This document shows positions 20,199 through 63,469 of a stretch of DNA of 64,000 bases, in pieces. The DNA is from a virus (taxonomy: Duplodnaviria > Caudoviricetes), in the IMG/VR virus record IMGVR_UViG_3300033498_000048, positions 192,001 through 256,000 of that record; one strand, 5' to 3'. Each line of letters starts with the position of its first letter. The stretch's first letter is position 1. The notes beneath the pieces were generated by a model, which did not search any database, had not been told where the DNA came from, and was given only the letters and a program-made list of their open reading frames with translations. The translations under genes were made by a program, and so were the position numbers.

Positions 20199-23096
20199 AT
20201 GGAAACAAGAACCTATACTCAAATATTGGAATTAGATGATTCAACAATTGCCAATAAAGCTTCAATGTGTGGAATCAATTGGGCTAATATCAGAAACTTA
20301 ATTATTCCACAAATTAACATGACCTTTCAAACTGATATTGAACTATCTAAAAAAGATAAAGGACGTGTTAAAGCTTGGATTCAATGTAAACAAGATGATA
20401 ACGGTAATTCATATCCGTTAATTACCTTCAATAATTTTAACGATGGTGGTATCAGTGAAACATATACTGGTATCACTGCTATACATGGAAAAAACAATAC
20501 TAAAAAAACACAATTAAATATCAATCCAGTCGTACAACAGCCAACACAGGCAACAAATCAATTGGACACTTATAACGAATTTCATTCTATATTTGGTACA
20601 CTTCCAACGGTATCAATCAATGATGTTACTTATTTAAATAATAAGGGATTATCAATGAAAGAAGTTCCGAATACATTGGATTTAAGACGTGGAGTTGATA
20701 GTTATAATAAAAAGTTTATTGCATTTCCATTGGTTAATGTACACAATGAAATTGTAGGCTATCAAAAAATCTATGATAAGAAATTCAAACACGGAAACAA
20801 ATTAAAAGATAAAATTGTAGTATTTAAACCAAACACAAAAAATGGTAGTTTTGCAATATTGGGAACAATTACCCAACACACGAAAGTCATTTATTTGTGT
20901 GAGGGTTTAGCAACAGCATTATCAGTTTATGAATCAACTAAAGTTCCAACTATCATTTGTTTAGATTTGGGTAATGTCCATAATGTAATGCAATTATTCA
21001 ATAGCCACGAATTGATATTGGCTATTGATAATGATTATAATTACATCCACGATACACTCGAAAACTTACCACACAATGCTAAAATCATTTTACCAACTTT
21101 AAATGATATGGGAAAATGTGATTATAATGATGTGTATGTTAAATGTGGAAAACAGGAAGTTAAAAAACAATTACTATTCACACATAGTTATATTAAGTTG
21201 AATAGTAAGAGATTAGACATTAATGGATTCAATAGTGGAGTAACCTTAATTAAATCGACATATGAAACAGGAAAAACCTATAATTGTATTCAATATGTCC
21301 GTAAAAATTCAAAATTGAGTGTGTTATATATTGCACATTTAATATCATTGTGTGACCAAGCTGCTACTAAGTTTGCTATTAAAAGTTATAGCAAAGTTAA
21401 ACAGGTTAGCAATGAAAAAAGAATGAGTATTTGTATCAATTCATTGTACAAGATTATTAAGAATAATGTTGTTCCAATATTTGATATTTTAATTCTTGAT
21501 GAAATTGAGCAATTACTTGAAAGACTTGCTAATTCAAGAGCCACCGATATAAGAAATAAGGAAATGATATTCCAAGTATTAGAATATCTTGTTAAAAACT
21601 GTCGACAAGTAATTTGTCTGGATGCTGATTTGAGTAAAGTAACACTTGATTTTATAGAAGCTATTAGAAATGGTGAATCATTCACAATATATGATAATTC
21701 ATATGTACATAAGAAAACGATGTATGTGTATGAGTCTGCTGAGGAAATAATCGAATTAACACAAGAAGCTGTTAATGCAAATGTTCCAACACTGTTTTGT
21801 ACAAACACGCTTAATAGAAGTGAAACCGTGTTTGAACAAATACAATGCTCAAATAAACGGGTAATTAACTCTAAAACTACATCAACGGATGATGTAATTG
21901 AGTTTTTAGAAGACATTGATGTTCATTGTCAACAGGATTTACTAACAATTTGTAGTCCTTCAATAAGCACTGGAGTTAGTATAGAATCTGGACATTACAA
22001 ACTTAATACTGGAATATTTGTTCATAATGTTAATACTCCATTAGATGTATTACAACAATTGGAACGTGATAGAAGAACATTAGACAAACACATTTTTATT
22101 AGTCCATATTCTAATAAAATTGACAATCCTAATTATTCAGATGCAACAGATTTCACATTAAAAATGATTAGTGCTAATGGTGAAATCGTCCATAGAAATA
22201 ATAATTATTCAAAACTGGTTAATAATGTGAATAATAAAAAGATTAAATTAATGTCAAACTTTAAAGGAACATTGTTAGACCTTGCTATAAGTAAAGGCTA
22301 CAATATCATAATGGTTGAACCCAAAATAACTCCAGAAGAAAAAACACGCATAAAAAACGAACAAAAACAAATAACCGAAACACTTGAAAAGGAAAGAATT
22401 GAAATGATTGTCACTTCTAATAAAATTGACGATGAAACATATTCTAATCTTAGGGATTTACAGATTATTACGGAAGATGAACGAGCTGAAATGTCCAGAT
22501 TTGAAATGGAAACATTTTACAACAAAGATATTTCAGAAAAATTAGTTAGATTTGATAATAAGGGTAAAACCAGAAAACAAATTAAATTGTTGCGTTTACT
22601 TAAACAAAACATTGACACAATAAAAGATAGACAGAAGTGGGCATTTAAAGATGTATTCATGGAAGATGTGGACTATAGCTATCTTAGATATACTTTGTAT
22701 TCCAAGTTATTCCACCACATTGGAATTGATATAGACACAATGCAAGTAATTAAAGAACAATATTCCCATAGTGATGCTTTAGATTTTTATAATTGGGTTG
22801 CAAAAAATAAATCAGCATTTTCAGTTGTTTGGTCTATACCAGATGAAAGTAAATTTAGTGCAAATCCGTTTAAATACATTGGCAATTTATTACAAAATTG
22901 TGGACTAAAACAATCCCGAAAATACCAAAAAGTAAATGGTGAAACTTTTACATATTACCAAGTATCACAAGCCTCTATTGACTCACTTGTGCAATATGTT
23001 AATAAATCAGTTGAACCAGGAACTGAAACAAAAAAAGATGTTCCCGTAAAAACAAAAAATAAGTTTGATGTACTAAACAATTCGACTCAATTATAA
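20199..23096 (+). CDS. TOPRIM primase fused to an origin-binding-protein-like SF2 helicase (CyRepA1/P4-alpha-like replication protein)
   Basis: IYLCEGLATALS, LAIDND and DYND (TOPRIM). LIKSTYETGKT (Walker A), ICINSL, LILDEIEQ (Walker B), SPSISTGVSI and LQQLERDR. Confidence 0.78.
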   Translation: METRTYTQILELDDSTIANKASMCGINWANIRNLIIPQINMTFQTDIELSKKDKGRVKAWIQCKQDDNGNSYPLITFNNFNDGGISETYTGITAIHGKNNTKKTQLNINPVVQQPTQATNQLDTYNEFHSIFGTLPTVSINDVTYLNNKGLSMKEVPNTLDLRRGVDSYNKKFIAFPLVNVHNEIVGYQKIYDKKFKHGNKLKDKIVVFKPNTKNGSFAILGTITQHTKVIYLCEGLATALSVYESTKVPTIICLDLGNVHNVMQLFNSHELILAIDNDYNYIHDTLENLPHNAKIILPTLNDMGKCDYNDVYVKCGKQEVKKQLLFTHSYIKLNSKRLDINGFNSGVTLIKSTYETGKTYNCIQYVRKNSKLSVLYIAHLISLCDQAATKFAIKSYSKVKQVSNEKRMSICINSLYKIIKNNVVPIFDILILDEIEQLLERLANSRATDIRNKEMIFQVLEYLVKNCRQVICLDADLSKVTLDFIEAIRNGESFTIYDNSYVHKKTMYVYESAEEIIELTQEAVNANVPTLFCTNTLNRSETVFEQIQCSNKRVINSKTTSTDDVIEFLEDIDVHCQQDLLTICSPSISTGVSIESGHYKLNTGIFVHNVNTPLDVLQQLERDRRTLDKHIFISPYSNKIDNPNYSDATDFTLKMISANGEIVHRNNNYSKLVNNVNNKKIKLMSNFKGTLLDLAISKGYNIIMVEPKITPEEKTRIKNEQKQITETLEKERIEMIVTSNKIDDETYSNLRDLQIITEDERAEMSRFEMETFYNKDISEKLVRFDNKGKTRKQIKLLRLLKQNIDTIKDRQKWAFKDVFMEDVDYSYLRYTLYSKLFHHIGIDIDTMQVIKEQYSHSDALDFYNWVAKNKSAFSVVWSIPDESKFSANPFKYIGNLLQNCGLKQSRKYQKVNGETFTYYQVSQASIDSLVQYVNKSVEPGTETKKDVPVKTKNKFDVLNNSTQL

Positions 23097-23258
23097 ATCA
23101 ATAGGTTAGCACTTACAACCGTTAAGGTATTATATAACTGTTCCAAATGCTAACTCGTTGTTTAATATACATAAAGTTGTAAGGTATATAAATCAATAGG
23201 TTAGCACTTACAAGTGATAGTTAATTATAAGACCAGTCAAAGTGCTAAGTCATTGATT
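23096..23258. repeat. Two 68-bp inverted-repeat units (20-bp arms, 28-bp spacer)
   Basis: 23096-23163 and 23191-23258. Arms resemble AATCAAYRRGTTAGCACTTR and its reverse complement. Confidence 0.85.
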
Positions 23259-25108: not shown

Positions 25109-25176
25109 AAACAACGAGTTAGCACTTGGAACGATTATGTAACTAATACCAGTTTCCAAGTGCTAACTCGTTAATT
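25109..25176. repeat. 68-bp inverted-repeat unit
   Basis: aaacaacgagttagcacttg-N28-caagtgctaactcgttaatt. Confidence 0.85.
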
Positions 25177-50174: not shown

Positions 50175-50284
50175 TTGGCATTATCTGGTTGTTATACTAA
50201 TTTCATATTTATGTGAATATAGTTGTTGACTAGGTATTTAATATTTTGTTATACTATTGACATTCAAATAGACTAGCTTATCAG

Positions 50285-50584
50285 GTGGGTGTTATGACAA
50301 CTTCAAAAGAATTTTTAAAAGCTATAAAAACCGAAATGAAAAAAAATGGTGGAGATGATTGGTCGGCAATAAACAAAGTAAGTTCCACAGTAAAACGTGG
50401 AGAAGAAGATGATTGGGATATTGCTAGACTGGCAATTATAGGATTAACATCAACACAAGCAGCACAAAAAGCTAAAGCAGCAGCAAAAAGAATTGAGAAG
50501 GAATTTAATTCAAAAGAAGTTCAAGGCTATTTAAAAGTAATGCACGGCTCAAAAGATTTTTATTCTAATAACGCTGTAGCTTAA
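50285..50584 (+). CDS. Hypothetical protein
   Basis: 99 aa, downstream of a TTGACT-18-TATACT promoter-like motif; true start probably the ATG of MTTSK. Confidence 0.55.
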   Translation: MGVMTTSKEFLKAIKTEMKKNGGDDWSAINKVSSTVKRGEEDDWDIARLAIIGLTSTQAAQKAKAAAKRIEKEFNSKEVQGYLKVMHGSKDFYSNNAVA

Positions 50585-50655
50585 AAAACCCGTCCGTCAG
50601 TGGCATCATAACTGGTAAAAAACAAGTAAAATAATAATTTTTAGGAGTAAACATC

Positions 50656-50841
50656 ATGTCAATATTCATACCATCCATAAAACACACAAACGGTTACATT
50701 GAGGTTTTTACAACAAAATATGGTGGGATGTTCTTTGACGACATAGTACACGCATCACTATATGTAAGCGACCATACCAATGAATTTTGGCATTGCACAT
50801 CAAAAGGAGTGGCTAAAAATAGAGCAAACGAAACTATTTAA
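50656..50841 (+). CDS. Hypothetical protein
   Basis: 61 aa, AGGAG RBS. Confidence 0.6.
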   Translation: MSIFIPSIKHTNGYIEVFTTKYGGMFFDDIVHASLYVSDHTNEFWHCTSKGVAKNRANETI

Positions 50842-50880
50842 AGCATTTTTTATTGAAGTTTAACATAAAGGAAATGTATC

Positions 50881-51045
50881 GTGGAAACATTTGAATATGT
50901 TGAAGGCTTTTTAGCAGCTAAAAATGATTTAATGTATGGTAGCAACCCATATCAAGACCCCGTAAAAAAATTGTCGTGGTCTAAAGGTCATAACGACTTT
51001 AGAGTAAAACAAAAAACAACAAAGTCGAAGAAAATAGCAAAATAA
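50881..51045 (+). CDS. Small ORF (54 aa) with an Rmf-like motif; absent from the ORF track
   Basis: GTG start 8 nt after AAGGA: VETFEYVEGFLAAKNDLMYGSNPYQDPVKKLSWSKGHND...; hairpin follows the stop. Confidence 0.5.
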   Translation: METFEYVEGFLAAKNDLMYGSNPYQDPVKKLSWSKGHNDFRVKQKTTKSKKIAK

Positions 51046-51123
51046 GCAAACTAGTGATAGGTTTGCTTATTTGAATGGAAATTGTATTCTGTCTAATACC
51101 AATCAAGCACACATAGCTCAAAA

Positions 51124-51558
51124 TTAAGGGCAAACAGCTCTCAGGATTCTCATTTGACCCGCAAGAATCTTGGGCGCACCATCTCCATTGGAAACTGTTT
51201 TTGAAGTTGTAAGAAATGAAATATAATACAGATTTCCTGCTGTTGCTGCATCGTGTAACCCAGCCCCGACAATAGTTCCCCAATTTGCGGAAGGAACACC
51301 GAAAACCAATTCTTGTAGGTTGCTATATTCAAGGTTAGCTCCAGATGGACCCTGCCAACCATTTGATGCTAATATTTGAACCCTAGCATAGTTAGTTCCA
51401 ACAGTTGATACTTCAACTCCTCCAGTACCATCAAGTGACGGAGTTGAGGTGAATAGTGAAACCCACAACGATGTTGGAGGAGTGAATACGGGGGTATTCT
51501 TTAATAAGTAGTCCATAGACTTCTGATAATAAAAATTTGATGTGGTACTAGATGGCAT
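51124..51558 (-). CDS. Phage tail/virion protein
   Basis: LWVSLFTSTP; GTNYARV; NWGTIVGAGLHDAATAGN; TATAAATA at 51592-51599. Confidence 0.8.
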   Translation of the reverse strand: MPSSTTSNFYYQKSMDYLLKNTPVFTPPTSLWVSLFTSTPSLDGTGGVEVSTVGTNYARVQILASNGWQGPSGANLEYSNLQELVFGVPSANWGTIVGAGLHDAATAGNLYYISFLTTSKTVSNGDGAPKILAGQMRILRAVCP

Positions 51559-52228
51559 TTTTTTTCTCCGTCATTAATAATAGTATTACTATATTTATAC
51601 AAACATTGACACGTTATATTTAATATTTTGGAGGTCCGATACGAGTTATTTAACAGAGGAAAGTTTGGGTTTACATTTGCATGAAATGTTCGGTGTAGAC
51701 TTTATACACAACAGAATAGTACAAAAATCGACCTGATTATAGGAATGACGCATTAAACCTAATAATTGAATTTGATGGATATAGACATTTTAATTCTACT
51801 GAAGTGATAACTTTAAAGATTCTGTATATGTGTAAATTTAGGTTACACTATAGTAGTAAAGTCATACTGGTATTAAAACGTTCTTTGAAAATACTTCATA
51901 GCTCATGTTGTCTGGAACAACATCTTTTGTTAATTGTGAATAGTATTTCACCGAGTTGTACACTTTATATACACTATTCCATTTACAGTTACAACTTTCA
52001 TGTTTTTACCATCAGCACCTTTAAACATTTTAGTCCGAACGCTATTATTTGTTGACATTTGTATTATCTCCACGTTTCGTTTTAAGATTGGAATTACATT
52101 GTAGTGCTTATTTTACACTAAACATTAAAACGATGTCAAATTTATTTTATCTAAATTAATGGACGTGTATCAAGTTCGGGTTTAATCACATGGAACAGTT
52201 ATCACCCCTTTGGAAATATGGTGAAATC

Positions 52229-52420
52229 TCATACTTGTTTACCATAATCAACATATCGTTGTTCTAAGTCAGATTCCCAATCTTTAATTGTTTCAACAAG
52301 TAAAGAATTATGACTTCTTTTGATGTCACGTTTTGCACCGTCAATTGCTTTAATAAGACCAGATTGTCTACGTTTTTCTTGGGCTATCAAATTAGCAATT
52401 TGTTGTTTGTTAGTTGTCAT
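52229..52420 (-). CDS. Hypothetical protein
   Basis: 63-aa coiled-coil ORF. Confidence 0.5.
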   Translation of the reverse strand: MTTNKQQIANLIAQEKRRQSGLIKAIDGAKRDIKRSHNSLLVETIKDWESDLEQRYVDYGKQV

Positions 52421-52476
52421 GTTGTTTCCAGGTATTGTAATTGATTCAAGTTATTGGAACATATAATAAAGTACCA

Positions 52477-52665
52477 CTACTCCTCGAAATATTCGTTTTT
52501 AACCACATTGTGGACCAATTGTCTGTTGATTGCACGTTCACGCTGCCTTGATAATAACTTATTAATGGAGCAATAGGCTTGCTGTGATAACGGTCTACGA
52601 GACCATAAATCACGCCCTTGATGTTGCGTTTTTTGATTTCTATGGTGTAATGTCCTAGCCATCAA
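52477..52665 (-). CDS. Small basic hypothetical protein
   Basis: 62 aa, GGAG RBS, Arg-rich. Confidence 0.55.
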   Translation of the reverse strand: MMARTLHHRNQKTQHQGRDLWSRRPLSQQAYCSINKLLSRQRERAINRQLVHNVVKNEYFEE

Positions 52666-52728
52666 GTTTTCTCCTAAATTATTCGTTTTTTGTCAATTAT
52701 AATTTGGTATAATGAAGCGTGGTTTCCA

Positions 52729-54279
52729 TCATTTGATTCTTTCTATCAAATTGATATATTCGGTTGTTTTGTTACCAACTACTAATCCCTTTGTTCTATT
52801 GTATAACAACGGCATTACTGGTTCTAAACATTCAATAAGGAATAAAAATAATCTAAAACAATCCGAACATACTTCATGGCTATTATCACTCAAATTCCAA
52901 GGTTTGTTGTTATCTATGTAACAATTGATAATGGTAGCATTACCTAATATTATTTTTATTGCCTCAGAGTATTTTAATTCTGTGTATTTATCGAATATGA
53001 TTTGTCTATCATTAATTATATGTTCATAAAACACAGTATCAGATATTTCTGATAATTGACTACCGAACTTATTATTTAATAACGCAATTGTTCGACTACC
53101 AATATTAATTAACTTTCCAATTAATTCATTGTTTATTTTAACAACAAAATCATCATAAGTAAAGTCTATATCATTAATAGTATCATCCAATTTATAAGCA
53201 AAATAAAAACGTAATAATTCTGGGTCATACTTATCACCGAATTTCTTCCCTGTAATAAAAGAGCCTTTTGATTTACTCATTTTATTTTTATTAACGGTTA
53301 AAAATCCATGCGTTGCTAATTTTGTTGGTAATCTATAATTATTACCTTTTAGTATAGCTACCCAAAATAATGCGTGAAAGTAAATAATATCTTTACCTAT
53401 AAATTGGATCAACTCAGTCGACTCTTCTCTCCAATCATTTTTATAATCCAGTCCGATGCCATCAAGATATTCCTTATGGCTTGAAATATATGCTATAGGA
53501 GCGTCAAACCACACATAAAAACATTTATCCAAATCTGGAATATCAAATCCAAAATATGGTTTATCCCTAGTCAAGTCCCAATCAAGTAATGGCTCATCAA
53601 ACCATTCTAATAATTTATCTTTTAATTGATTACTAATCGCTTTACTATCAATAAACTCCAATAAGGTATCTCTGAACGATTCAATGTTTAAGAAACAATG
53701 ACTACTTGATTTGTTGATAATACTATGAGTGCTTTCTTTGACTACAATCGGATTAATCAAATCAATAGCAGAATAAACACTTTGGCAGTTGTCGCAACCA
53801 TCACCCCATTGTGAATGACTCCCACATTTTGGGCATATCCCCTTGACTTCTCTATCAGATAAAAACTTCTTATCATACTCATCAAATAATTGTTTTACTT
53901 CTTTTTCTATGATATATCCGTTTGCTTTTAACGTATTGAAAAAGTCAATAGTTAATTTTTCATTTTCTTTAGAATTTGTACTAGAGAAAATATCAAAATT
54001 TACACCAAATTTTTCTAAATCAAATAAATGTTCATTTCTAATCTTATCAATATAATCAACTTCTGATAAGTTTTCGTTTTGAGAGCTGATAGTAATTGCT
54101 GTTCCATGTGAATCGGACGCACATATAAAATCAACTTCATATCCATCTAATCGTTTAGCTCTAACAAAAATATCCGATTGGATATATTCCAGTAAATGAC
54201 CCAAATGAATATCACCATTTGCATAAGGCAATGCGCTGGTTACAACTATTTTATTTTTCATATCTCTTTGTCCAAACAT
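52729..54279 (-). CDS. metG: Methionyl-tRNA synthetase (monomeric; no C-terminal dimerisation domain)
   Basis: TSALPYANGDIHLGH (HIGH); Zn knuckle CPKC..CDNC; YVWFDAPIAY; FIGKDIIYFHALFW; KMSKS. Start may be ATG 54261. Confidence 0.95.
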   Translation of the reverse strand: MFGQRDMKNKIVVTSALPYANGDIHLGHLLEYIQSDIFVRAKRLDGYEVDFICASDSHGTAITISSQNENLSEVDYIDKIRNEHLFDLEKFGVNFDIFSSTNSKENEKLTIDFFNTLKANGYIIEKEVKQLFDEYDKKFLSDREVKGICPKCGSHSQWGDGCDNCQSVYSAIDLINPIVVKESTHSIINKSSSHCFLNIESFRDTLLEFIDSKAISNQLKDKLLEWFDEPLLDWDLTRDKPYFGFDIPDLDKCFYVWFDAPIAYISSHKEYLDGIGLDYKNDWREESTELIQFIGKDIIYFHALFWVAILKGNNYRLPTKLATHGFLTVNKNKMSKSKGSFITGKKFGDKYDPELLRFYFAYKLDDTINDIDFTYDDFVVKINNELIGKLINIGSRTIALLNNKFGSQLSEISDTVFYEHIINDRQIIFDKYTELKYSEAIKIILGNATIINCYIDNNKPWNLSDNSHEVCSDCFRLFLFLIECLEPVMPLLYNRTKGLVVGNKTTEYINLIERIK

Positions 54280-54329
54280 TAACTCGTTATTTATTGTTAA
54301 TAATAGCTTTAAAAATTTGCATTATTAAG

Positions 54330-54758
54330 CTAAGACTTAATTAATTTATCAATTATATTGGTAAATTCTGATATTTTATTGTCACAGTCAGTTACCACAG
54401 CTTTTTTATAATCTTCCAATCTAGCCATTACTCCATTCAATAATTCAACATACTTTAACACACATTCTTCACGATTATCAAACACATAAACTGGATTACC
54501 AGTACGACTCTTATATCCAGTGTTATCGAATGGAGCGTGTATGGTTTTTGTCAGTTTGTCATTTTTTAATACAACAAAGTGACAAGAAGAATAATAAATA
54601 GTTTTTTTAGATAACGAATTATCTTGTATCAAAACTTGAACTGGTAAAACATTTCTTGCTGCATTTATGATACTTAAATCGGTTTTTCTATAATCACATA
54701 TCCAAACCTTTTCACCAGTCATTTTTCCACTGGTAATGTCTTCAATTTTAATTTGCAT
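54330..54758 (-). CDS. Hypothetical protein
   Basis: 142-aa ORF. Confidence 0.65.
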   Translation of the reverse strand: MQIKIEDITSGKMTGEKVWICDYRKTDLSIINAARNVLPVQVLIQDNSLSKKTIYYSSCHFVVLKNDKLTKTIHAPFDNTGYKSRTGNPVYVFDNREECVLKYVELLNGVMARLEDYKKAVVTDCDNKISEFTNIIDKLIKS

Positions 54759-54899
54759 TATTTACCACCAACTTTGGAGTTTGGTTAGTTAGAGACTTAG
54801 CACATTTTGATATTAAATCAACAGGTGTATTTCCAACTAGCGAAATGTAATCACAAATCCAAATATATTTACCCTGCTTATGTGTTGTGGTATCGCACA

Positions 54900-55259
54900 T
54901 TATTTAGTCCTATTACGAAGTTGCTTTAACCTAATTACTTCTAATTCAGCTTGTTTGATTTTACTATCAAGATTTTTTACTTGTTTCCTTGCAAGTTTAT
55001 AATCGCGCATAATGTCAATATATTCACTATACAATTTTGACATAGTATCACTCATATTACTGTGGAACGGGTCGATAACCAATCTATGTTCAAGATGTAG
55101 GTCAATATCTTTGTTGGTGTTTTGGATGAGTTTTGATGCAACAGACCCATCTTTAATGGCAGCTTCATACAACCTATATGCAAATCTCAACAACATTGCT
55201 AGCTTTTTATCAACCGTTTCTACGGATGTAACTCCTCTAATGGTTTGGGCTTTACTCAT
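54900..55259 (-). CDS. Hypothetical protein
   Basis: 119 aa, AAGGA RBS. Confidence 0.6.
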   Translation of the reverse strand: MSKAQTIRGVTSVETVDKKLAMLLRFAYRLYEAAIKDGSVASKLIQNTNKDIDLHLEHRLVIDPFHSNMSDTMSKLYSEYIDIMRDYKLARKQVKNLDSKIKQAELEVIRLKQLRNRTK

Positions 55260-55277
55260 ATCATTATCCTTTTTGTG

Positions 55278-55619
55278 TTAGTCTTCAATGTTCCAATTAT
55301 CAATAAAGTTTAATATTACCTTAACGAAGTCTTTAGTTTCATTGTATCTAAAACTCCGTGCTTTAATAGCGTACTTAATATCCCGTACTAAATTGCTTGC
55401 ATTGTGTTGGACTTCTTCAAGTAATTCAATTCGCTTTTCAAGTTTAGTAACCTCAGTTTGCACTTGCTCGAAATCTTCTAATTTACCCTCTAATTCTTCA
55501 ATCAAAGTACATTTCAATTGGTCTGGCAAATCTGCGTATTTGATGATTTCATCTATAGTGAAATTTACTGGCACATAAGTTGTCATGTCTATCCTAATTT
55601 TAAATATTGCACATTGCAC
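55278..55619 (-). CDS. Hypothetical coiled-coil protein
   Basis: Probable start at MTTYV with an AGGA RBS. Confidence 0.55.
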   Translation of the reverse strand: MQCAIFKIRIDMTTYVPVNFTIDEIIKYADLPDQLKCTLIEELEGKLEDFEQVQTEVTKLEKRIELLEEVQHNASNLVRDIKYAIKARSFRYNETKDFVKVILNFIDNWNIED

Positions 55620-55816
55620 AATAACAGTTTTCCAATAGCAGTCAGTTCAATACTTCCGAATGGACCCCTAATAATATAACCTTCTAATTCAAGTTGTTTT
55701 GCTTGTTTTATTGGCATTGTATAGCACGGAATATTACCTCTTTCCATCCCAGCTATTTGTTTTTTAAGATTTTTTATTGCTGATTCAGTTGCCATGTGAT
55801 TGACACTCGACTTCAC
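55589..55816 (-). CDS. Hypothetical protein
   Basis: Member of a run of overlapping small minus-strand ORFs. Confidence 0.45.
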   Translation of the reverse strand: MKSSVNHMATESAIKNLKKQIAGMERGNIPCYTMPIKQAKQLELEGYIIRGPFGSIELTAIGKLLLCNVQYLKLG

Positions 55817-56012
55817 ATTGTTGTGCTAAAAAATATCTCAATTCTGCTGCAATTTTATCAGCAGGATAACCAAGATTCCTTAGCCTGTTAAATTCGGTCA
55901 TTGCTGCGTGTGAGTCTATTGCTTCATCTAGCATTGTTTCAATTAAAATTTCTTTATTCGACATTACTATAACTCCATTTAAAAATATACTTGGATTAAA
56001 CCGTAGTACCAC
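55785..56012 (-). CDS. Hypothetical protein
   Basis: Probable start at MSNKE with a GGAG RBS. Confidence 0.5.
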   Translation of the reverse strand: MVLRFNPSIFLNGVIVMSNKEILIETMLDEAIDSHAAMTEFNRLRNLGYPADKIAAELRYFLAQQCEVECQSHGN

Positions 56013-56094
56013 CCACTTTCATCTTGACTTGCCACCTTAAACCCAGTTTAACAAGCTCTTTTTTAATTCTTCTAGTTCATATTTTGACATTATA

Positions 56095-56313
56095 TTATCC
56101 AGTAACTAACCTTGACATATCAGAAACTATTGCGTTATTGCGAATAAAATCAATAACATTGAATCTTTCGTTTGTGTCGTTAAATTCCAATGCGTCTTTA
56201 CGATTAAAAGTCCAGTAAACCTTTAAACATACAATACTTTTGACATATTTATAAACAGCACCACCAATTCCATGCTCGTCTTTCTCCAACACAGCATAAC
56301 CTATAATTGCCAT
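56095..56313 (-). CDS. Hypothetical protein
   Basis: 72 aa, AGGTG RBS. Confidence 0.55.
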   Translation of the reverse strand: MAIIGYAVLEKDEHGIGGAVYKYVKSIVCLKVYWTFNRKDALEFNDTNERFNVIDFIRNNAIVSDMSRLVTG

Positions 56314-56446
56314 CTTATCACCTTTATTATTGTTAGCGTTTCAATATTTGTGTACTATAACATGATATACAGTCTTAACGCAAGCTTTTATTTTCAAGTT
56401 AATATAAATAAATGTATCAATATGATTATTTTAAGGGGAACTACAA

Positions 56447-56620
56447 ATGGAAGGACAATGGCTTGGAGGTAAGGGTTCAACAACTAGACCTATGCAAGTA
56501 AACCGACAACAGTTTGAAGATAACTGGAACAAGATTTTCAACAAGAAACTGGATAATGCGAATAAATTAATTCCAGTAAATGAAACCATAGTGGAGATTG
56601 TAACAAATGACACAGTATAA
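56447..56620 (+). CDS. Small conserved T4-like phage protein (57 aa); absent from the ORF track
   Basis: MEGQWLGGKGSTTRPMQVNRQQFEDNWNKIF...; AAGGGG RBS; TATAAATA at 56403-56410. Confidence 0.75.
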   Translation: MEGQWLGGKGSTTRPMQVNRQQFEDNWNKIFNKKLDNANKLIPVNETIVEIVTNDTV

Positions 56621-56858
56621 AACATTTAAATCCTTTTGTGAGTCTGTAACAGCGTTGCCTATCTATTTTCTATGTGAAAAGTGTAAAGAATCAGGTATTC
56701 AGGAGTCTGATGAATTTGATATGGAGACTAAAACCTCTAGGCAAGAATATATTACAAAGGGACAAGATAAAATATTTTTAAAGAAAGTTTGTTATGAATG
56801 CAAATCTGAAAGTGGTGTAGACGAGAATTATTTAAAAGGGATACAATATAGTGGTTAA
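56607..56858 (+). CDS. Hypothetical protein with two CxxC pairs
   Basis: CEKC...CYEC; N-terminus MTQYKTFKSFCE. Confidence 0.6.
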   Translation: MTQYKTFKSFCESVTALPIYFLCEKCKESGIQESDEFDMETKTSRQEYITKGQDKIFLKKVCYECKSESGVDENYLKGIQYSG

Positions 56859-57453
56859 TGTTAAAAACATTAGGGTAAAATCATTTAATGAATATTTAAT
56901 GGAAAACAGTCCAATAATTAGAACTGAGTTAGACAAAGAAATACATTCTAACACAGCAACAAGCCAATTAAATGATATTCCAATTCCATCAATGAAAGAT
57001 GCAAAAAGTGGAGATTATAAAAAAAGCAGAATTAAAATAAATGGACTAATCATTGATATTGAAAATCCGTATGGTTCAGTTAGAAAAGGCATTAGCTCAA
57101 ATGGCGAATCGTGGGAAATTACGTTATCAGATAATTATGGTGAAATTAAGGGGTATGATGCTGCTGATGGAGATTATTTAGATATTTTCATTCGTCCACA
57201 TATGACACAAAAACAAGCAGATAATTTAAATGTCATTTATGTGATAGACCAATTGGATCCAACTACACATGGATTTGATGAACATAAAGTCGTATTTGGG
57301 TATGAAACAATCGAGGAATCTAAACGTGCATATCTAGCCAATTATAAATCAAATTGGACTGGATTAGGATATATCACTCCATTAACTATGACGATGTTTA
57401 AATATTGGATTAAAAATGAAGACTTAACACAACCATTAGTTTGGGGTAAATAA
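56851..57453 (+). CDS. Inorganic-pyrophosphatase-fold domain protein of the type seen in phage polyvalent proteins
   Basis: IDIENPYGSVRKG; YGEIKG...ADGDYLDIFI; VIDQ; FDEHKVVFGY; AYLANY. Confidence 0.8.
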   Translation: MVNVKNIRVKSFNEYLMENSPIIRTELDKEIHSNTATSQLNDIPIPSMKDAKSGDYKKSRIKINGLIIDIENPYGSVRKGISSNGESWEITLSDNYGEIKGYDAADGDYLDIFIRPHMTQKQADNLNVIYVIDQLDPTTHGFDEHKVVFGYETIEESKRAYLANYKSNWTGLGYITPLTMTMFKYWIKNEDLTQPLVWGK

Positions 57454-57834
57454 ATGTTTAAATCATTCAATGACTTCATACGATTAGAAGATACGAGCTT
57501 TCATTCAATAATGGCAAGGAACATAAAACCCACCAAACAAAAAACAGTTGATTTTGATGATATTAGCACTGGTTCAACCGTTAGATTAGTTGATATTGGA
57601 AATTACTTTTTATTAACTGGATTAGAAACACCTCCAGAAAATAGGGGTAAAGGTGGTGCTAAAAAAGTTATGCAACAGGCAATTCAATATGCGATTGATA
57701 ACGAAAAGAACATAGAATTATCGGTTATTCCTGACGATGATACAGACACTGAAACCTTAATAAAATTGTATTCTAGTTTTGGATTTAGAAAAACAGGACA
57801 ACCACATAACCATATGCGTTATATTACAATATGA
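57454..57834 (+). CDS. GNAT-family acetyltransferase
   Basis: LETPPENRGKGGAKKVM (acetyl-CoA motif A); LIKLYSSFGF. Confidence 0.85.
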   Translation: MFKSFNDFIRLEDTSFHSIMARNIKPTKQKTVDFDDISTGSTVRLVDIGNYFLLTGLETPPENRGKGGAKKVMQQAIQYAIDNEKNIELSVIPDDDTDTETLIKLYSSFGFRKTGQPHNHMRYITI

Positions 57835-58247
57835 AATCATTTAAAGAATATACAAACAATCCGATATTATATCACGGAACAACATCAAACTTCGATTTTG
57901 ATAAAGGTTTAATGGCAGGTGGAAATAAACAAACAACGTCCAACTTTAATGCCAGTAATGGTGAAATTTGGCTAACTTCAAATAGGGAAGTTGCGTTTGA
58001 GTATGCTATGATTGCATGGAAAACACTACAAAACTTTTCATTAACGCCGATTTTGATACAAGTTGATATTGATGTTAGCTTATCAGCAGACCAACCTATA
58101 GAACATGACCAAGTAGCGTTTTGTTTTGAATTAGATGTTATTCCAAAAAGTAAACTAAAGATGGTAAAGTTGACTCAAGCAGAATTAGCTAATTTCAAAA
58201 AACGATATGACCGAGAACTTAAAAATGGAAAATCAAAATTCAATTGA
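57831..58247 (+). CDS. ADP-ribosyltransferase-like protein
   Basis: ILYHGTTS; IWLTSNREVAFEYA; ILIQVDI. Confidence 0.6.
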   Translation: MKSFKEYTNNPILYHGTTSNFDFDKGLMAGGNKQTTSNFNASNGEIWLTSNREVAFEYAMIAWKTLQNFSLTPILIQVDIDVSLSADQPIEHDQVAFCFELDVIPKSKLKMVKLTQAELANFKKRYDRELKNGKSKFN

Positions 58248-58302
58248 TTTTCGTATGGTGTTTGTGTTATAGTACATAAAACATCATACTAATCACAACA
58301 TT

Positions 58303-58536
58303 ATGAAATCAAAACTAACCCAAGCTAAAGAATTATTTGACACAGGAAATTTGAATGGATGTTTAAAGATAGTTAAGACTTTTAGGTTAAGTTTAACTAA
58401 AGATGATTTGAAGGTGGTTTCCAGAACATATGAAATGCTGACAGGAAACCACAATTTTTACAATTCATTGGGCTTTGATGTGGACACTGAATTAGCTAAA
58501 GCTAACCAAATTTTGACCACAGTATTTAAATTGTGA
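58303..58536 (+). CDS. Hypothetical protein
   Basis: 77-aa ORF. Confidence 0.6.
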   Translation: MKSKLTQAKELFDTGNLNGCLKIVKTFRLSLTKDDLKVVSRTYEMLTGNHNFYNSLGFDVDTELAKANQILTTVFKL

Positions 58537-58773
58537 TTATTTGTCAACTTTATTTTCAATGAACTTTTGTACAGCTTTAGGTGCGAATGCTGCTAATAAG
58601 AACCCAAATGTCAAATATAATCCAACATCTGAATTGCTAGTGATGTGAACAATCGACATTTTCAAGGTTAAATATCCGAAAACGATTGATGCGATTAATG
58701 AAATAAACGACATCAGCCTCATTGAACTGTGGTTTCCGTTATCTTCTTGGAAGAATCCAATCTTTCTATACAT
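58537..58773 (-). CDS. Two-TM membrane protein (holin-like)
   Basis: SSMRLMSFISL...; two hydrophobic helices; KAVQKFIE tail. Confidence 0.6.
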   Translation of the reverse strand: MYRKIGFFQEDNGNHSSMRLMSFISLIASIVFGYLTLKMSIVHITSNSDVGLYLTFGFLLAAFAPKAVQKFIENKVDK

Positions 58774-58819
58774 AAATAGAGTTCCGTTAATATATTATAT
58801 AATTTTATTATTTATTATA

Positions 58820-60019
58820 TTAACTATTTAACTTTTGAAAAAATTGCAACAAATCTTCTTGTAATACTGAACATGGAATAGGATATTCAATATTATCAAG
58901 AAAATTGAGTTTAATATCTTGATTACAATCTGGTATAACTAAATCGAATAGTTTTCCAGCCAATACATAATCGAAATATTTAAATTCCAATGTATAATCA
59001 ATCCTACCTTTACGCAATAGGGCATCATCTAACTTAGTGTGGAAGTTGCTAGTCATTATAACTATAACATCTTCTTTACTATACAATCCGTCCAACACAT
59101 TCAATAGTGTAGATAAACTAACTGAATTGGTTAGACCAGCATTAGTTGAATTAATGTCCCGTTTTAATACACTATCACACACGGCATCAATGTCTTCTAA
59201 CAAAACAATTGAATCAGATGGAATATCAATAAACGCTGTAATAATTGACGAGTCAGTTAATGTTTTCAAATTGATTGAATAAATTGATTTTTTATATAAT
59301 GATGCTAATGCTAACACTAAACTCGTTTTACCAGTTCCAGGTGGACCAGTAAACAAATATCCCCTTTTATATAAAATTCCTCTATCTAAGTACCATTGTT
59401 TATTAATGTAGAAGTGTTCTATATCATCAAGCAACGATTGCTTATCATTATCTGGTAATACAATTGATTTAATATTGCGATAGTTCCTAGATGCAATTAT
59501 TCGCCATTCAGTAACATATGTGTGTATTGAAACTTGATTTCGACTTTTAGTTAAAACAGCAGCAACGAAATCATCAACTATATTTGGATCCCTACGAAAT
59601 AGAAAATACATTGTTATATCTTCAGGAGCTTTAAACATTCCAGTAGTTCGATTCGCCAATACTTTATAAAACAAAACTGGACGGTGTTTATACCAAAACC
59701 AATGTAACCCAGTTGAAAATGTAATATTACCAACATTTCCATGATAACCTGAAACATAATAATCATACAATTGAAGCCTTCTTGTATTAGATAGTAATCT
59801 ATTTTTTTCAATCCACAAACAAATATCATCAAACATATCGGTATTATTCCTAACCAACACTTCAACAGATAAAAAGTAAATTACCATTCGTTTTATTTGT
59901 GTTGGAATACCTTTTAACACATAAATCGCATATCCACATAGTGTAGCAACAACAGCACCAGAACTAAACATATTTGTTTGTACTTGATAGACTATCCATT
60001 CATAAACTTGTATCACCAT
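58820..60019 (-). CDS. BCS1-like AAA ATPase
   Basis: N-terminal TM, GLHWFWYKHRP (BCS1_N-like), WYLDRGILYKRGYLFTGPPGTGKTS, LLEDIDA, LSTLLNVLDG, LLRKGRID. Confidence 0.9.
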   Translation of the reverse strand: MVIQVYEWIVYQVQTNMFSSGAVVATLCGYAIYVLKGIPTQIKRMVIYFLSVEVLVRNNTDMFDDICLWIEKNRLLSNTRRLQLYDYYVSGYHGNVGNITFSTGLHWFWYKHRPVLFYKVLANRTTGMFKAPEDITMYFLFRRDPNIVDDFVAAVLTKSRNQVSIHTYVTEWRIIASRNYRNIKSIVLPDNDKQSLLDDIEHFYINKQWYLDRGILYKRGYLFTGPPGTGKTSLVLALASLYKKSIYSINLKTLTDSSIITAFIDIPSDSIVLLEDIDAVCDSVLKRDINSTNAGLTNSVSLSTLLNVLDGLYSKEDVIVIMTSNFHTKLDDALLRKGRIDYTLEFKYFDYVLAGKLFDLVIPDCNQDIKLNFLDNIEYPIPCSVLQEDLLQFFQKLNS

Positions 60020-60573
60020 TAGTAATTCCGTTTCTTTATTTTAATAATATCAATATCATTACCACACGATACGATGTGATTTCCAGCTGCTAATATTGCC
60101 ATTTTTAATTTATCATTTGTATTCAATTGTGTTTCAATATTTGTTAATACAAATAAAGCTCCTTCGGCAGTGATACCTCCACTACCAATTGCAGTGTAGG
60201 GTGAATTTAGTTCACATACTGACCAATCATCTTGGATTTCAAATATCTTTGACCGATAACAAATTATATAGTTACCACAACGCCCTTTACTATCGTTTTC
60301 AGTATATTTGTGTAATTCCAAACACCTGCGAATTTCTGGAATTAAATCTTGTATCATATAATCAATTGGGTTGCCTCTTGTGTCTTTTGGTAGTTCTAAA
60401 TGGTGGCTAATAATTTGTGTTGCTCTTAATGAACCCATAGAGCCTATTAACATTTTTCCTATTTTAAATACCTTTGAATGAACTAAAGTTGACCCAACAT
60501 GACCATTTGATATTAGTCGGTCTCCACCTAAATATAAGTGTGTTTTGTCCATTAATGCTGCTATACACGTCAT
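60019..60573 (-). CDS. Ntn-hydrolase, HslV/proteasome-beta-like peptidase
   Basis: N-terminal MTCIAA (Thr1 after Met removal); GGDRL; KVFK; IGSMGS; AIGSGG. Confidence 0.78.
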   Translation of the reverse strand: MTCIAALMDKTHLYLGGDRLISNGHVGSTLVHSKVFKIGKMLIGSMGSLRATQIISHHLELPKDTRGNPIDYMIQDLIPEIRRCLELHKYTENDSKGRCGNYIICYRSKIFEIQDDWSVCELNSPYTAIGSGGITAEGALFVLTNIETQLNTNDKLKMAILAAGNHIVSCGNDIDIIKIKKRNY

Positions 60574-60591
60574 ATAATCTCCTTATAATTG

Positions 60592-60659
60592 TTTTAAAAT
60601 AATAGCACTTGGAACAGTCTTATAATTAACTAACTGTTCCAAGTGCTAACCTGTTGATA
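60592..60659. repeat. 68-bp inverted-repeat unit, intergenic
   Basis: ..atagcacttg-N28-caagtgctaacctgttgat. Confidence 0.8.
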
Positions 60660-60660
60660 T

Positions 60661-61794
60661 TTACTTAATTAGTCCACGAATTAAAGATTCAAACTTACGA
60701 ATTTCTAGCTTTCTCAAATAAGCTGGAATATCTGTAATAGCACCCTTTTGATATGCAAAAACTATTCCAGATAAGTTTTGATTATCTTTCATTTTTAAGC
60801 CAAGTTCTTTTCCAGTTAATGTTTTAGTGTATTCAATAAGCGTGTCTAGTTTCTGTTGTAATCGCTTGTACGCTGTTTTTATGGTTGAGTGTAGCACTGT
60901 ATGCTCTTTGTACTTATCGAGCGATAGGAACGATTTGTGTGAGTTTGTACGCACTATTTCACACATTCTACGGAAATTGTCTTTATCTATTTGTGATTTT
61001 CGTTTGATGTATTCCTCATTTGATATGAATTTAGAAGTCCGCAACAGATTAATATTGTCGTATTGTGGACTCTTTATTTTCAACCGATTAAAATTAGAAT
61101 CACACGCAACATAACCTTCCATCTTAATTGGGTCAACCTCATTTAATTCCAATAAAATATCATTCAAGGTTGATTTTTTACCAGTTGCACATTCCCATGA
61201 AATACACAATTCACGTTTAGCACGTTCAATTGACACCTCTTTAAAAGTTTTAAGATTGCGAACACCAATAAGGGTAATGTTAGGTTCTGATACTTTAACC
61301 AAAAAGTCTTCTGATGGACGTTCCATTTCAAACATATAACAATGGTCTGTAAACTTTGGTAATTCGTATTTTTTCAACTTCCAAACTTTCCAGAAATAAT
61401 CATTCATTGTAATATCTAAACCCTTAATTTGTCCAGACGCATCAGGCATACCTTTAGATGCTACATTCCATTTTCCATCATACCAATACAATGTCATCAA
61501 TGAACCATCTAACTTTTTCCAATATGTACAATCATCAAAATCGAAAGTTTGTTTTCCCATTGGATTATAATCACTAAACCTAGTAAACGGAAATGATACA
61601 ACCTTCATTGTATTAGTATCAATTATTAATCCCCTACAATTATTAGTTATGTCATTCTTTGGTGTTTCCAATTGGTCATACATCAATTGTACTAAATTTG
61701 GATATAATATATGTCTACGCATTTTTAATGAATATGTAGCAACTAATGTTTCCAATGAATTTTTAATAATGTAATCAATAACGTTTAACATCAT
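60661..61794 (-). CDS. rnlA: RNA ligase 1 (T4 RnlA family)
   Basis: CRGLIID; FPFTRF; KKLDGSL (adenylation motif I); YMFEM; EGYV; RLKIKSPQY. Confidence 0.9.
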   Translation of the reverse strand: MMLNVIDYIIKNSLETLVATYSLKMRRHILYPNLVQLMYDQLETPKNDITNNCRGLIIDTNTMKVVSFPFTRFSDYNPMGKQTFDFDDCTYWKKLDGSLMTLYWYDGKWNVASKGMPDASGQIKGLDITMNDYFWKVWKLKKYELPKFTDHCYMFEMERPSEDFLVKVSEPNITLIGVRNLKTFKEVSIERAKRELCISWECATGKKSTLNDILLELNEVDPIKMEGYVACDSNFNRLKIKSPQYDNINLLRTSKFISNEEYIKRKSQIDKDNFRRMCEIVRTNSHKSFLSLDKYKEHTVLHSTIKTAYKRLQQKLDTLIEYTKTLTGKELGLKMKDNQNLSGIVFAYQKGAITDIPAYLRKLEIRKFESLIRGLIK

Positions 61795-61966
61795 AACCTC
61801 GTTTAGTTTGTTTAGGAAGGAACAGCACCTAAGCTATTACAGTCTTTGTAAAATATCTCAATGCGTTTTTTATTTGCATAATCATCTGCAACGTATAATA
61901 ACAATACTACACACAAATTAGTTCTACCAACTCTTGTTTTCTATATACCACATAACACCTCTTTAA

Positions 61967-62191
61967 TTAAAGTCTTCTAAAGTTGGAACATTTAACTGCG
62001 TGTGTTCCATCCAAGTAATGCTTTAGAACTGGCTTCATTTTTTTAAATTCTAAATGACTACAATTCACAATACTATCAATACAATTACAACACATTTCAC
62101 CATCTGGAAAATACTCAGGTAGTGTTCTATCAATGTAATTACCATCTCCAATTGTTTGATTACCCTCAAACACAAATTTAAGTTTTCTCAT
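61967..62191 (-). CDS. Small Cys-rich hypothetical protein
   Basis: 74 aa, CCNC..C..C, downstream of a consensus sigma70 promoter. Confidence 0.55.
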   Translation of the reverse strand: MRKLKFVFEGNQTIGDGNYIDRTLPEYFPDGEMCCNCIDSIVNCSHLEFKKMKPVLKHYLDGTHAVKCSNFRRL

Positions 62192-62220
62192 AATGTAATT
62201 CCACGAATATCAATTTAGTA

Positions 62221-62249
62221 ATTATAAATGTACACACTAACAATGTCAA
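62221..62249 (-). promoter_or_regulatory. Consensus sigma70 promoter abutting the first repeat unit
   Basis: Minus strand TTGACA-17-TATAAT. Confidence 0.8.
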
Positions 62250-62824
62250 TCAATAAGTTAGCATTAAGTAATTAATAATAGCGTCCAAGTGCTATCTTAT
62301 TGATATTATTAGTGTATGACTACTCCAACTAAATCAACGACTTAGCACTTGCATAGAGTATTAGTTATATAACCGTTCTAAATGCTAACCTATTGATTTT
62401 GTTACATATCACCTAAAATATTAAGAATCAACAAGTTAGCACTTGTAGCCATTAGGTAATTAATAACACCATCCAAGTGCTAAGTCATTGATTTTGTATA
62501 ATTGACAAGAATGTATGGATTTAACCGTAAATCAACAAGATAGCACTTGCAGCTTGGTATTAATTATATAACTGTTGCAAGTGCTAACTTATTGATTTTG
62601 TTATTGGCTATTAAAACAATTAAGAATCAAGTGGTTAGCACCTATTGGTATCAAGTGGTTACTATTGTCAATAAATTGAGTAAAATGACCTAGTAATTAC
62701 AGTTACACTACAAACAATAGGTTAGCACTTGCAGTGTGTTATTAATTACTTAATGGCTACAAGTGCTAACTTATTGTTTTATATACAACACATAAACACA
62801 CCTAAATCAATGACTTAGCACTTG
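62248..62824. repeat. Array of inverted-repeat units: five complete, plus two left arms
   Basis: Units at 62248-62305, 62332-62398, 62426-62493, 62530-62597 and 62712-62779; lone arms at about 62626 and 62805-62824. Confidence 0.9.
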
Positions 62825-62889
62825 GACGGATTAGCTGAAATTGGTAAACAACATAAATACCATTTTAGTTAAATTAGGGGATACAGATT

Positions 62890-63469
62890 ATGTTACTAAG
62901 TTTTAATGAATATTTGTTATCTGAGGCATACATTAACCTGATAGGTGATGACGCTAAAAAACAAAACTACGTTGATGCTGTTTGGAATATGTTACAAATA
63001 TCTTATGAGAGGATTGGTGGAATACATGATTATGGGTTTAAAGATAAACAGAATATGATTACCAATATAAATTTTTGGAAATAGCTACTAAAGATGGTAA
63101 ACCTGTAGCAGTTGCAATGTATAAAGATTCTGGAGGCAGAAAAAATTAGTTGCGTATGGAACTGATAAGTCCACAGTAGGAAAAGCAAAGATAGTTGATA
63201 TTATTAAGGCAGATATGACCAGAAGTTATATGGAACTATCTGGTGCAACTGTGACAATATTAATGAATAACATTGAGTGGAATCAATTGAAAGATTATAC
63301 ATTCACTCCAGAGCAAGCTGAAAAATTGCTAGGAAAGGATATTACACCAATAAGTCAACTACCATCAATTCCATAAGATGCGAAATTAACGTTGGCATTG
63401 TTTGAATATGGGTACATAAGAAAGATTGGTAGTGATTTACATTTTAAAGTTATGTTTGGTAAAATCTAG
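62890..63469 (+). pseudogene. Internal-head-like gene broken by two frameshifts and an in-frame TAA
   Basis: MLLSFNEYLLSE...NFWK, then IATKDGKPVAVAMYKDSGGRK, then LVAYGTDK...PSIP*DAKL...VMFGKI*. The shifts fall in A-runs. CATAAATA at 62852-62859. Confidence 0.65.

Follow-up and report, generated by a model that had tools for sequence, protein, structure and literature searches.

A dispersed 68-bp inverted-repeat element with a fixed 28-nt centre in the intergenic regions of a T4-superfamily jumbo phage

The DNA analysed here, referred to as the window, is a 64-kb stretch (G000:C1:192001-256000) of the phage genome under study (G000), a 305,782-bp virus record with terminal repeats that comes from a microbial mat sample; positions are those of the window unless marked G000. 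The genome has a GC content of ~31%, and its tail sheath shares 41-46% identity with the sheaths of T4-superfamily myoviruses, indicating a T4-superfamily jumbo phage. Searches of cultured phages with megablast and blastn found no close relative. In the window, a gap of 698 bp (62192-62889) separates divergent genes: on the minus-strand side lie a 74-aa gene (61967-62191) and then rnlA, an hslV-like gene and an AAA ATPase gene, and on the plus-strand side there are small ORFs. A promoter at 62249-62221 (minus strand) drives the 74-aa gene and the rnlA operon. The gap contains an array of a 68-bp inverted-repeat unit, made up of two 20-bp arms and an AT-rich centre, that also occurs elsewhere in the window. 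The features that bear on the unit are as follows.

20199..23096, plus strand: primase-helicase, 965 aa, with a Toprim primase, an SF2 helicase (UL9-like) and a winged-helix-like C-terminal domain
23096..23258, unstranded: two tandem units (23096 and 23191) with a 95-bp period and 28-nt spacers; they start at the last stop-codon base of the primase-helicase gene
25109..25176, unstranded: single intact unit with a 28-nt spacer, between two plus-strand genes
60592..60659, unstranded: operon-internal unit with a 28-nt spacer and a degenerate outer left arm, between the rnlA stop codon and the ribosome-binding site (RBS) of the hslV-like gene
62221..62249, minus strand: sigma-70 promoter (TTGACA, 17 nt, TATAAT), 12 of 12 consensus matches; the -35 hexamer overlaps the edge of unit 1
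62248..62305, unstranded: unit 1, decayed, with an 18-nt spacer; by alignment, a 10-nt deletion cuts from the end of the left core into the centre
62332..62398, unstranded: unit 2, decayed, with a 27-nt spacer (1-nt deletion) and poorly matching outer arms; its predicted fold (z -1.4) is no better than those of shuffles
62426..62493, unstranded: unit 3, intact, 28-nt spacer
62494..62529, plus strand: linker with TTGACA 8 nt past the end of unit 3; there is no usable -10 hexamer before unit 4, and no promoter was called
62530..62597, unstranded: unit 4, intact, 28-nt spacer
62625..62644, plus strand: solo arm with the IHF-consensus part and the core, without a partner arm
62712..62779, unstranded: unit 5, intact, 28-nt spacer
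62805..62824, plus strand: solo arm; the start of the plus-strand gene at 62890 is 65 nt downstream

The array comprises three intact units (62426, 62530 and 62712), two decayed units and two solo arms. A sequence-only reading of the window had listed the units with spacers of 28 nt at 23096, 23191, 25109, 60592, 62426, 62530 and 62712, and shorter ones of 27 nt (62332) and 18 nt (62248), all of which we recovered, and it had missed the two solo arms (62625-62644 and 62805-62824). It had also placed the first unit against a consensus sigma-70 promoter; indeed, the promoter is a perfect match that overlaps the first bases of unit 1. By contrast, the 18-bp spacer, which had been taken for a variant shorter by one helical turn, belongs to a 10-nt deletion derivative lacking the end of its left core when aligned with the other units, and the 27-nt copy is likewise decayed. 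Two minor features flank the solo arms. Directly after the last of them, and ~32 nt upstream of the start of a 64-aa gene at 62890, CATAAATA (62851-62858, plus strand) matches the T4 late-promoter motif TATAAATA at 7 of 8 positions. Beside the other, a 12-nt arm piece (ATCAAGTGGTTA) recurs as a direct repeat 25 nt downstream (62626-62662, plus strand), which looks like a scar of slippage or recombination.

Our scan for half-sites used the 20-nt consensus of the sequence-only reading and allowed up to three mismatches. It found 18 half-sites in the window against 0.21 expected, a count reached in none of 100 shuffles, and the whole genome contains 83 convergent core pairs; the element is thus the dispersed inverted-repeat family that had been claimed, and it is real and strongly non-random. 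The spacer, measured as the distance between the 10-nt cores of paired arms, is exactly 28 nt in 72 of the 83 pairs, and sequence conservation falls to background precisely at the ends of the 68-bp unit. The units are spread over 37 intergenic regions, taking up about a quarter of the larger intergenic regions of the phage, and 82 of the 83 fall outside any called ORF despite a coding fraction of 84%, such that the intergenic placement noted for the window holds genome-wide. There are no units in the structural block at G000 220-240 kb. Successive units are most often 94-96 bp apart, and their flanks fall into a few linker families that are related as inverted rather than direct repeats. On 24 of 166 sides, TTGACA is found 7-9 nt beyond the unit, in most cases with no -10 hexamer, and a complete outward sigma-70 promoter, counted when it scored at least 10/12 within 45 nt of the unit end, is found on 14 of 166 (~8%). 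Conservation also has a helical periodicity, a modest 10-bp peak that carries no weight in our conclusions. Outside the window, four units occupy a divergent intergenic region of 1,042 bp beside a gene for a DnaB/gp41-type helicase (G000:C1:161668-164100), the second array that adjoins a replication gene.

The centre of the unit was expected to be conserved in length and variable in sequence around a TAATTA-like tract. Conserved length and TAATTA centring both stand, but the sequence is not variable: the centre has its own conserved, mostly asymmetric consensus around TAATTA, in one orientation in 38 cases and in the other in 34, together with a more symmetric subtype. Its polarity is independent of the direction of flanking genes, and its type shows no linkage to arm variants or flanks. 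In 26 of 34 cases (p = 0.003), the centres of neighbouring units have the same polarity, which points to growth of the arrays by tandem duplication, and one pair of tandem units is identical in sequence. The sequence-only reading had preferred a conserved geometry to simple duplication; our data argue for the geometry, with duplication as a contributor. A reading of the centre or arms as sigma-70 or MotA-type promoters was rejected, since the spacings misfit and centre polarity ignores gene direction; searches that control genomes cannot validate gave no match in the phage to AsiA or to the MotA C-terminal domain.

A relative is represented by an ENA contig (L131) whose RnlA is 64% identical to that of the phage and whose neighbouring proteins are 46-80% identical. 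L131 has two tandem units with a 95-bp period, in which the arms and the 28-nt spacing are kept (2 of 2) and the centre is different. These units sit between a promoter (TTGACA, 17 nt, TACAAT) and the RBS of the operon, and hence in the mRNA leader; the position of the promoter differs between the two genomes, being between array and gene in the phage and upstream of the units in L131. To the right of the units the phage and L131 are colinear, whereas to the left the L131 genes match G000 240.7-242.2 kb, 12 kb off and inverted. By sequence comparison, a rearrangement breakpoint between the phage and L131 therefore abuts the array. Comparing 50175-62250 with L131:1-8238, we observed a ~12-kb block (G000 242.2-254.2 kb) that is inverted or translocated and has one end at the array. 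The opposite breakpoint (50175-50284) is a divergent promoter region with no unit, such that a simple unit-to-unit inversion relative to L131 is not supported. At the rnlA/hslV junction, a unit is present in the phage and absent from L131, with no target-site duplication; the link of units to rearrangements and indels rests on these two events. Freshwater metagenome contigs from three other studies, with ~90% nucleotide identity in genes, have the same arms and centres, but break at the repeats, so the arrangement of arrays cannot be read from them. The element is absent from three contigs with RnlA relatives at ~48% identity (L132-L134).

The 20-nt arm reads WATCAA-NNNN-TTA-GCACTTG. Its outer 13 nt correspond to the IHF consensus WATCAANNNNTTR (PMC9452768, PMC10380432), with the variable block of the arm coinciding with the NNNN of the consensus, and 148 of the 221 matches to this consensus in the genome (~68 expected) are arms. 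The variable block is not fully free, being mostly T-R-R-S. Within the arm, conservation is strongest in the inner core, (G)TTAGCACTTG, whose GCAC, the most conserved bases of all, lies outside the IHF consensus. Two further motifs resemble parts of the arm. The unit core GTTAGCAC matches Box 1 of the herpesvirus origin-binding protein OBP (GTTCGCAC) at 7 of 8 positions with the same layout, which is a resemblance only, and the half-site TTAGCACT matches the half-site of CIRCE (consensus in PMC3179173) at 8 of 9 positions, the halves in both cases forming an inverted repeat. We rejected a CIRCE/HrcA operator (TTAGCACTC, 9 nt, GAGTGCTAA) because its spacer is 9 bp and that of the units is 28-30 bp and never 9, and the phage has no HrcA gene. 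We regard the IHF, CIRCE and OBP matches as leads rather than identifications, since a 20-nt arm can fit such motifs by chance.

We tentatively propose as the best reading, at a little short of an even chance, that proteins bind the 68-bp unit as a dyad-symmetric boundary module, which doubles as a recombination patch. The unit would be a double-stranded DNA site read by proteins rather than a folded RNA. Each 20-bp arm would be a composite half-site, with the outer 13 bp for the host DNA-bending protein IHF and the inner core probably read by a second factor, and the fixed 28-bp AT-rich centre would set the geometry from arm to arm. Stacking at 94-96 bp, or about nine helical turns, may build phased nucleoprotein platforms, such as the array at 62248-62824, that would separate the transcription units of early, small-gene regions. 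The ~160 near-identical arms may also act as homology patches for the phage recombination system, through which units are duplicated in tandem, gained or lost and rearrangement breakpoints arise, as has been suggested for PeSL cassettes in T4-type phages. Several observations count against a protein-binding site. The phage genome encodes no HU/IHF-family protein, and the scheme presupposes a host that has IHF. Moreover, the position of the promoter varies between the phage and L131, units fill gaps between convergent genes as terminators do, and transcribed units fold.

The last of these observations raise the possibility, which we consider unlikely, that the units act as RNA hairpins, which might terminate or attenuate transcription, be processed by RNase III or stabilise mRNA, in the manner of the PeSL stem-loops or the RNase III sites of T7. 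At about 20 bp, the arms are long enough for RNase III. Intact units have predicted RNA folds of -20 to -31 kcal/mol (z -4 to -7; genome-wide mean about -24); two units exactly and wholly fill gaps between convergent genes (G000 15417 and 120785); and the unit at 60592 and those of L131 are certainly inside transcripts. PeSL stem-loops have been shown to terminate transcription (PMC2839356). However, if selection acted on an RNA structure, the arms would be expected to covary. In the variable arm block, Watson-Crick pairs number 174 of 288, against 169.6 +/- 7.4 expected when left and right arms are shuffled among units (positions 7-10 against 59-62), indicating no compensatory variation, and an arm has on average 3.1 non-pairing positions out of 20. 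In co-directional contexts the sense strand has 61 G-U and 46 A-C pairs, and hence no RNA-strand bias. There is no U-tract, as five or more T fall within the following 8 nt on just 24 of 166 sides; no terminator-like sites were found; and a search of Rfam gave sub-threshold microRNA-hairpin noise, with no family above noise. The sequences of the arm and of the 28-nt "loop" are conserved, and the loop occurs in both orientations whatever the direction of transcription. The phage genome encodes no RNase III. Lastly, unit 60592-60659 ends 12 nt ahead of the RBS of the hslV-like gene, which leaves no room for a promoter, such that the downstream genes, like those behind the L131 units, depend on read-through.

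With neither covariation, strand bias nor U-tract, and with units inside an operon and a leader, selected hairpins and simple terminators are both unlikely. We therefore rejected an intrinsic bidirectional terminator, for which a G/C-rich stem followed by a U-tract is lacking, and a structured RNA family, for which there are neither compensatory changes nor an Rfam match. The proposal of the sequence-only reading, a two-site protein-binding geometry, is favoured by the sequence pattern over a hairpin selected for its structure, given the regular spacing (72 of 83 genome-wide and 2 of 2 in L131) and the lack of covariation and strand bias. That reading had named two outcomes that would count against it, random spacer lengths in a larger sample and copies that are simply bidirectional terminators. 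We found neither: the spacer is exactly 28 nt in most units genome-wide and in both L131 units, and, in sequence terms, the missing U-tract, the operon-internal unit and the two leader units do not fit terminators. A side effect of transcribed units at the RNA level is likely, although it is not what the sequence pattern records.

A second alternative is that the units have no selected function of their own and form a palindromic repeat that is selfish or passively spread, either in the manner of a MITE or REPIN or by homologous recombination alone. We consider this distinctly unlikely. The many copies in both orientations are consistent with it, as are the locus that is filled in the phage and empty in L131, the shared polarity of tandem neighbours and the two identical units, the decayed copies and solo arms of the array, and the breakpoint at the array. 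On the other hand, there is no target-site duplication, the flanks are inverted rather than direct repeats, and a Y1/RAYT transposase (PF01797) was not found in the phage genome. The avoidance of coding sequence by all but one unit, and the lack of linkage between centre type and arm variants or flanks, also count against passive spread. Moreover, L131 retains both the arms and the strict 28-nt spacing despite a diverged centre, which argues for constraint; we take the geometry of the unit to be under constraint.

A third alternative, very unlikely in our view, is that the units are small origin-like sites, in which inverted GTTAGCAC boxes, outer IHF sites and an AT-rich unwinding centre are read by the UL9/OBP-related primase-helicase. 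An initiator box, an IHF site and an AT-rich centre make up the classic layout of an origin. The primase-helicase gene adjoins two tandem units, and the only PDB sequence matches of its helicase are to HSV-1 OBP (UL9; E 0.002; phage aa 348-495 against OBP 87-243), which is thus its best solved relative; its homologues match the Pfam family Herpes_ori_bp. We observed such homologues in islands of gammaproteobacterial MAGs, including those of Methylomonas and Methylomarinum. When an AF2 model of aa 707-944 (pLDDT 95) was compared with 48,161 chains, a single match reached a Z of at least 5, the DNA-binding domain of OBP (OBP 547-830; Z 6.5, which is below the level treated as reliable; rmsd 5.3 A over 166 residues), such that homology to this domain is only suggested. 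OBP Boxes 1 and 2 form an inverted pair separated by an AT-rich spacer, the length of which is critical (PMC12543377); the boxes of the unit are arranged in this way too, with the 7 of 8 match to Box 1 given above. However, the box match was spotted post hoc, the sequence profile of the C-terminal domain fails to reach OBP, and Foldseek against the PDB gave nothing below 1e-3. Nor is GTTNGCAC enriched at the loci of seven homologues (12 observed, 7.6 expected). The spacer of oriS is 18 bp and that of the units 28-30 bp, and no equivalent of the Box 3 hairpin was identified in the units. The genome also encodes a DnaB-type helicase. Herpes simplex virus has three origins per genome, and ~83 units in 37 regions are far above any known origin set.

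We regard the primase-helicase as a speculative and weak candidate for the factor that binds the core box, and the stronger claim, that the units are miniature replication origins or helicase-loading sites for a primase fused to a UL9/OBP-like helicase and DNA-binding domain, as highly improbable. If the units were origins, a jumbo phage would fire from dozens of them, and the OBP/oriS system of herpesviruses would gain a counterpart in phages. Protein binding, RNA hairpins, selfish spread and OBP-like initiation are not mutually exclusive.

Returning to the protein-binding boundary module, we compared the units with known repeats; our literature search found no description of the 68-bp element. 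The nearest described phage system is the PeSL (or PmSL) cassette of T4-type phages (Arbiol 2010, PMC2839356; Comeau 2014, PMC4122927). Like PeSLs, the units are conserved intergenic repeats in a T4-superfamily phage that occur among small early genes but seldom in structural blocks, some copies adjoin sigma-70-type early promoter elements, and both are found at indels or rearrangement points between relatives. PeSLs, however, consist of a short G/C-rich terminator stem-loop fused to a complete promoter, RBS and start codon, whereas the units are 68-bp dyads with AT-rich, conserved 20-bp arms, a fixed and conserved 28-nt centre and no U-tract, and form ORF-free tandem arrays with a 95-bp period. 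The units share with PeSLs an intergenic position in plastic, small-gene regions and an occurrence at indels between relatives (two events). We rejected a classic PeSL cassette, since a complete promoter is present on just 14 of 166 sides, with unit 1 among the few that fit, and there is no G/C-rich terminator stem.

By analogy, the units appear closer in function and build to the IHF-carrying BIME-1/RIP and Correia repeats. Both the BIMEs of E. coli and the Correia elements of Neisseria carry IHF sites (PMC3184786). BIME-1 (RIP/RIB) and other REP elements are, like the units, dispersed intergenic palindromes with an IHF consensus in ordered clusters, and have been proposed to act as boundaries of nucleoids or transcription units and as recombination sites (PMC3184786). 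BIME-1 has one IHF site between two inverted REPs, whereas the unit has an IHF-like motif in each arm, and REPs belong to bacterial genomes and the units to a phage genome. Membership of the REP/BIME (REPIN) class was rejected: the arms are neither self-palindromic nor small GC-rich hairpins, they lack the GTAG/CGTC tag, and the phage genome has no RAYT (PF01797). Correia elements (CREE) are also small inverted repeats that contain an IHF consensus and carry outward-facing promoter elements at the ends. Like the units, they form hairpin RNAs when co-transcribed, and their presence varies from one related genome to the next (PMC3184786). They differ in being 104-157 bp long and transposon-like, with a TA target duplication; the units have far stricter spacing. 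A Correia-type MITE was rejected because, inverted arms notwithstanding, there is no target-site duplication at the filled/empty site.

To our knowledge, dispersed palindromic repeats with sites for architectural proteins, such as REP/BIME and Correia, are a bacterial phenomenon, and only the simpler PeSL cassettes have been described in phages. A two-box element with such strict spacing, and conserved in relatives, points to a hitherto undescribed level of phage genome organisation, in which boundary, regulatory or initiation sites may double as recombination linkers. It may help to explain how blocks of small early genes are insulated and reshuffled in very large phages. Being short, the element can be synthesised with ease, and it has candidate partners in IHF and the OBP-like C-terminal domain, such that these ideas are directly testable even though the phage is uncultured.

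Searches beyond the relatives described above gave little. Queries with the tail sheath and RnlA found nothing close in the viral contig collection, and a scan of viral contigs for the exact pattern gave four chance matches inside genes and, with a stricter pattern, none; the same scan of genome contigs gave no match. In metagenome contigs there were more than 100 pattern matches, all of which we rejected as copies of an unrelated, high-GC hairpin of TTAGCAN repeats, none with the outer arm motif. This hairpin (L026-L130, GC 55-61%), whose arms are tandem repeats and whose spacers are ~30 nt, is widespread in soil and peat metagenomes. One further observation concerns the genes to the left of the array rather than the array itself: the operon at 58820-61794 (minus strand), which is conserved and syntenic in L131, encodes an RnlA-like RNA ligase of the T4 type together with a peptidase of the HslV family and a BCS1/AAA ATPase, suggestive of an HslVU-like protease module encoded by the phage.
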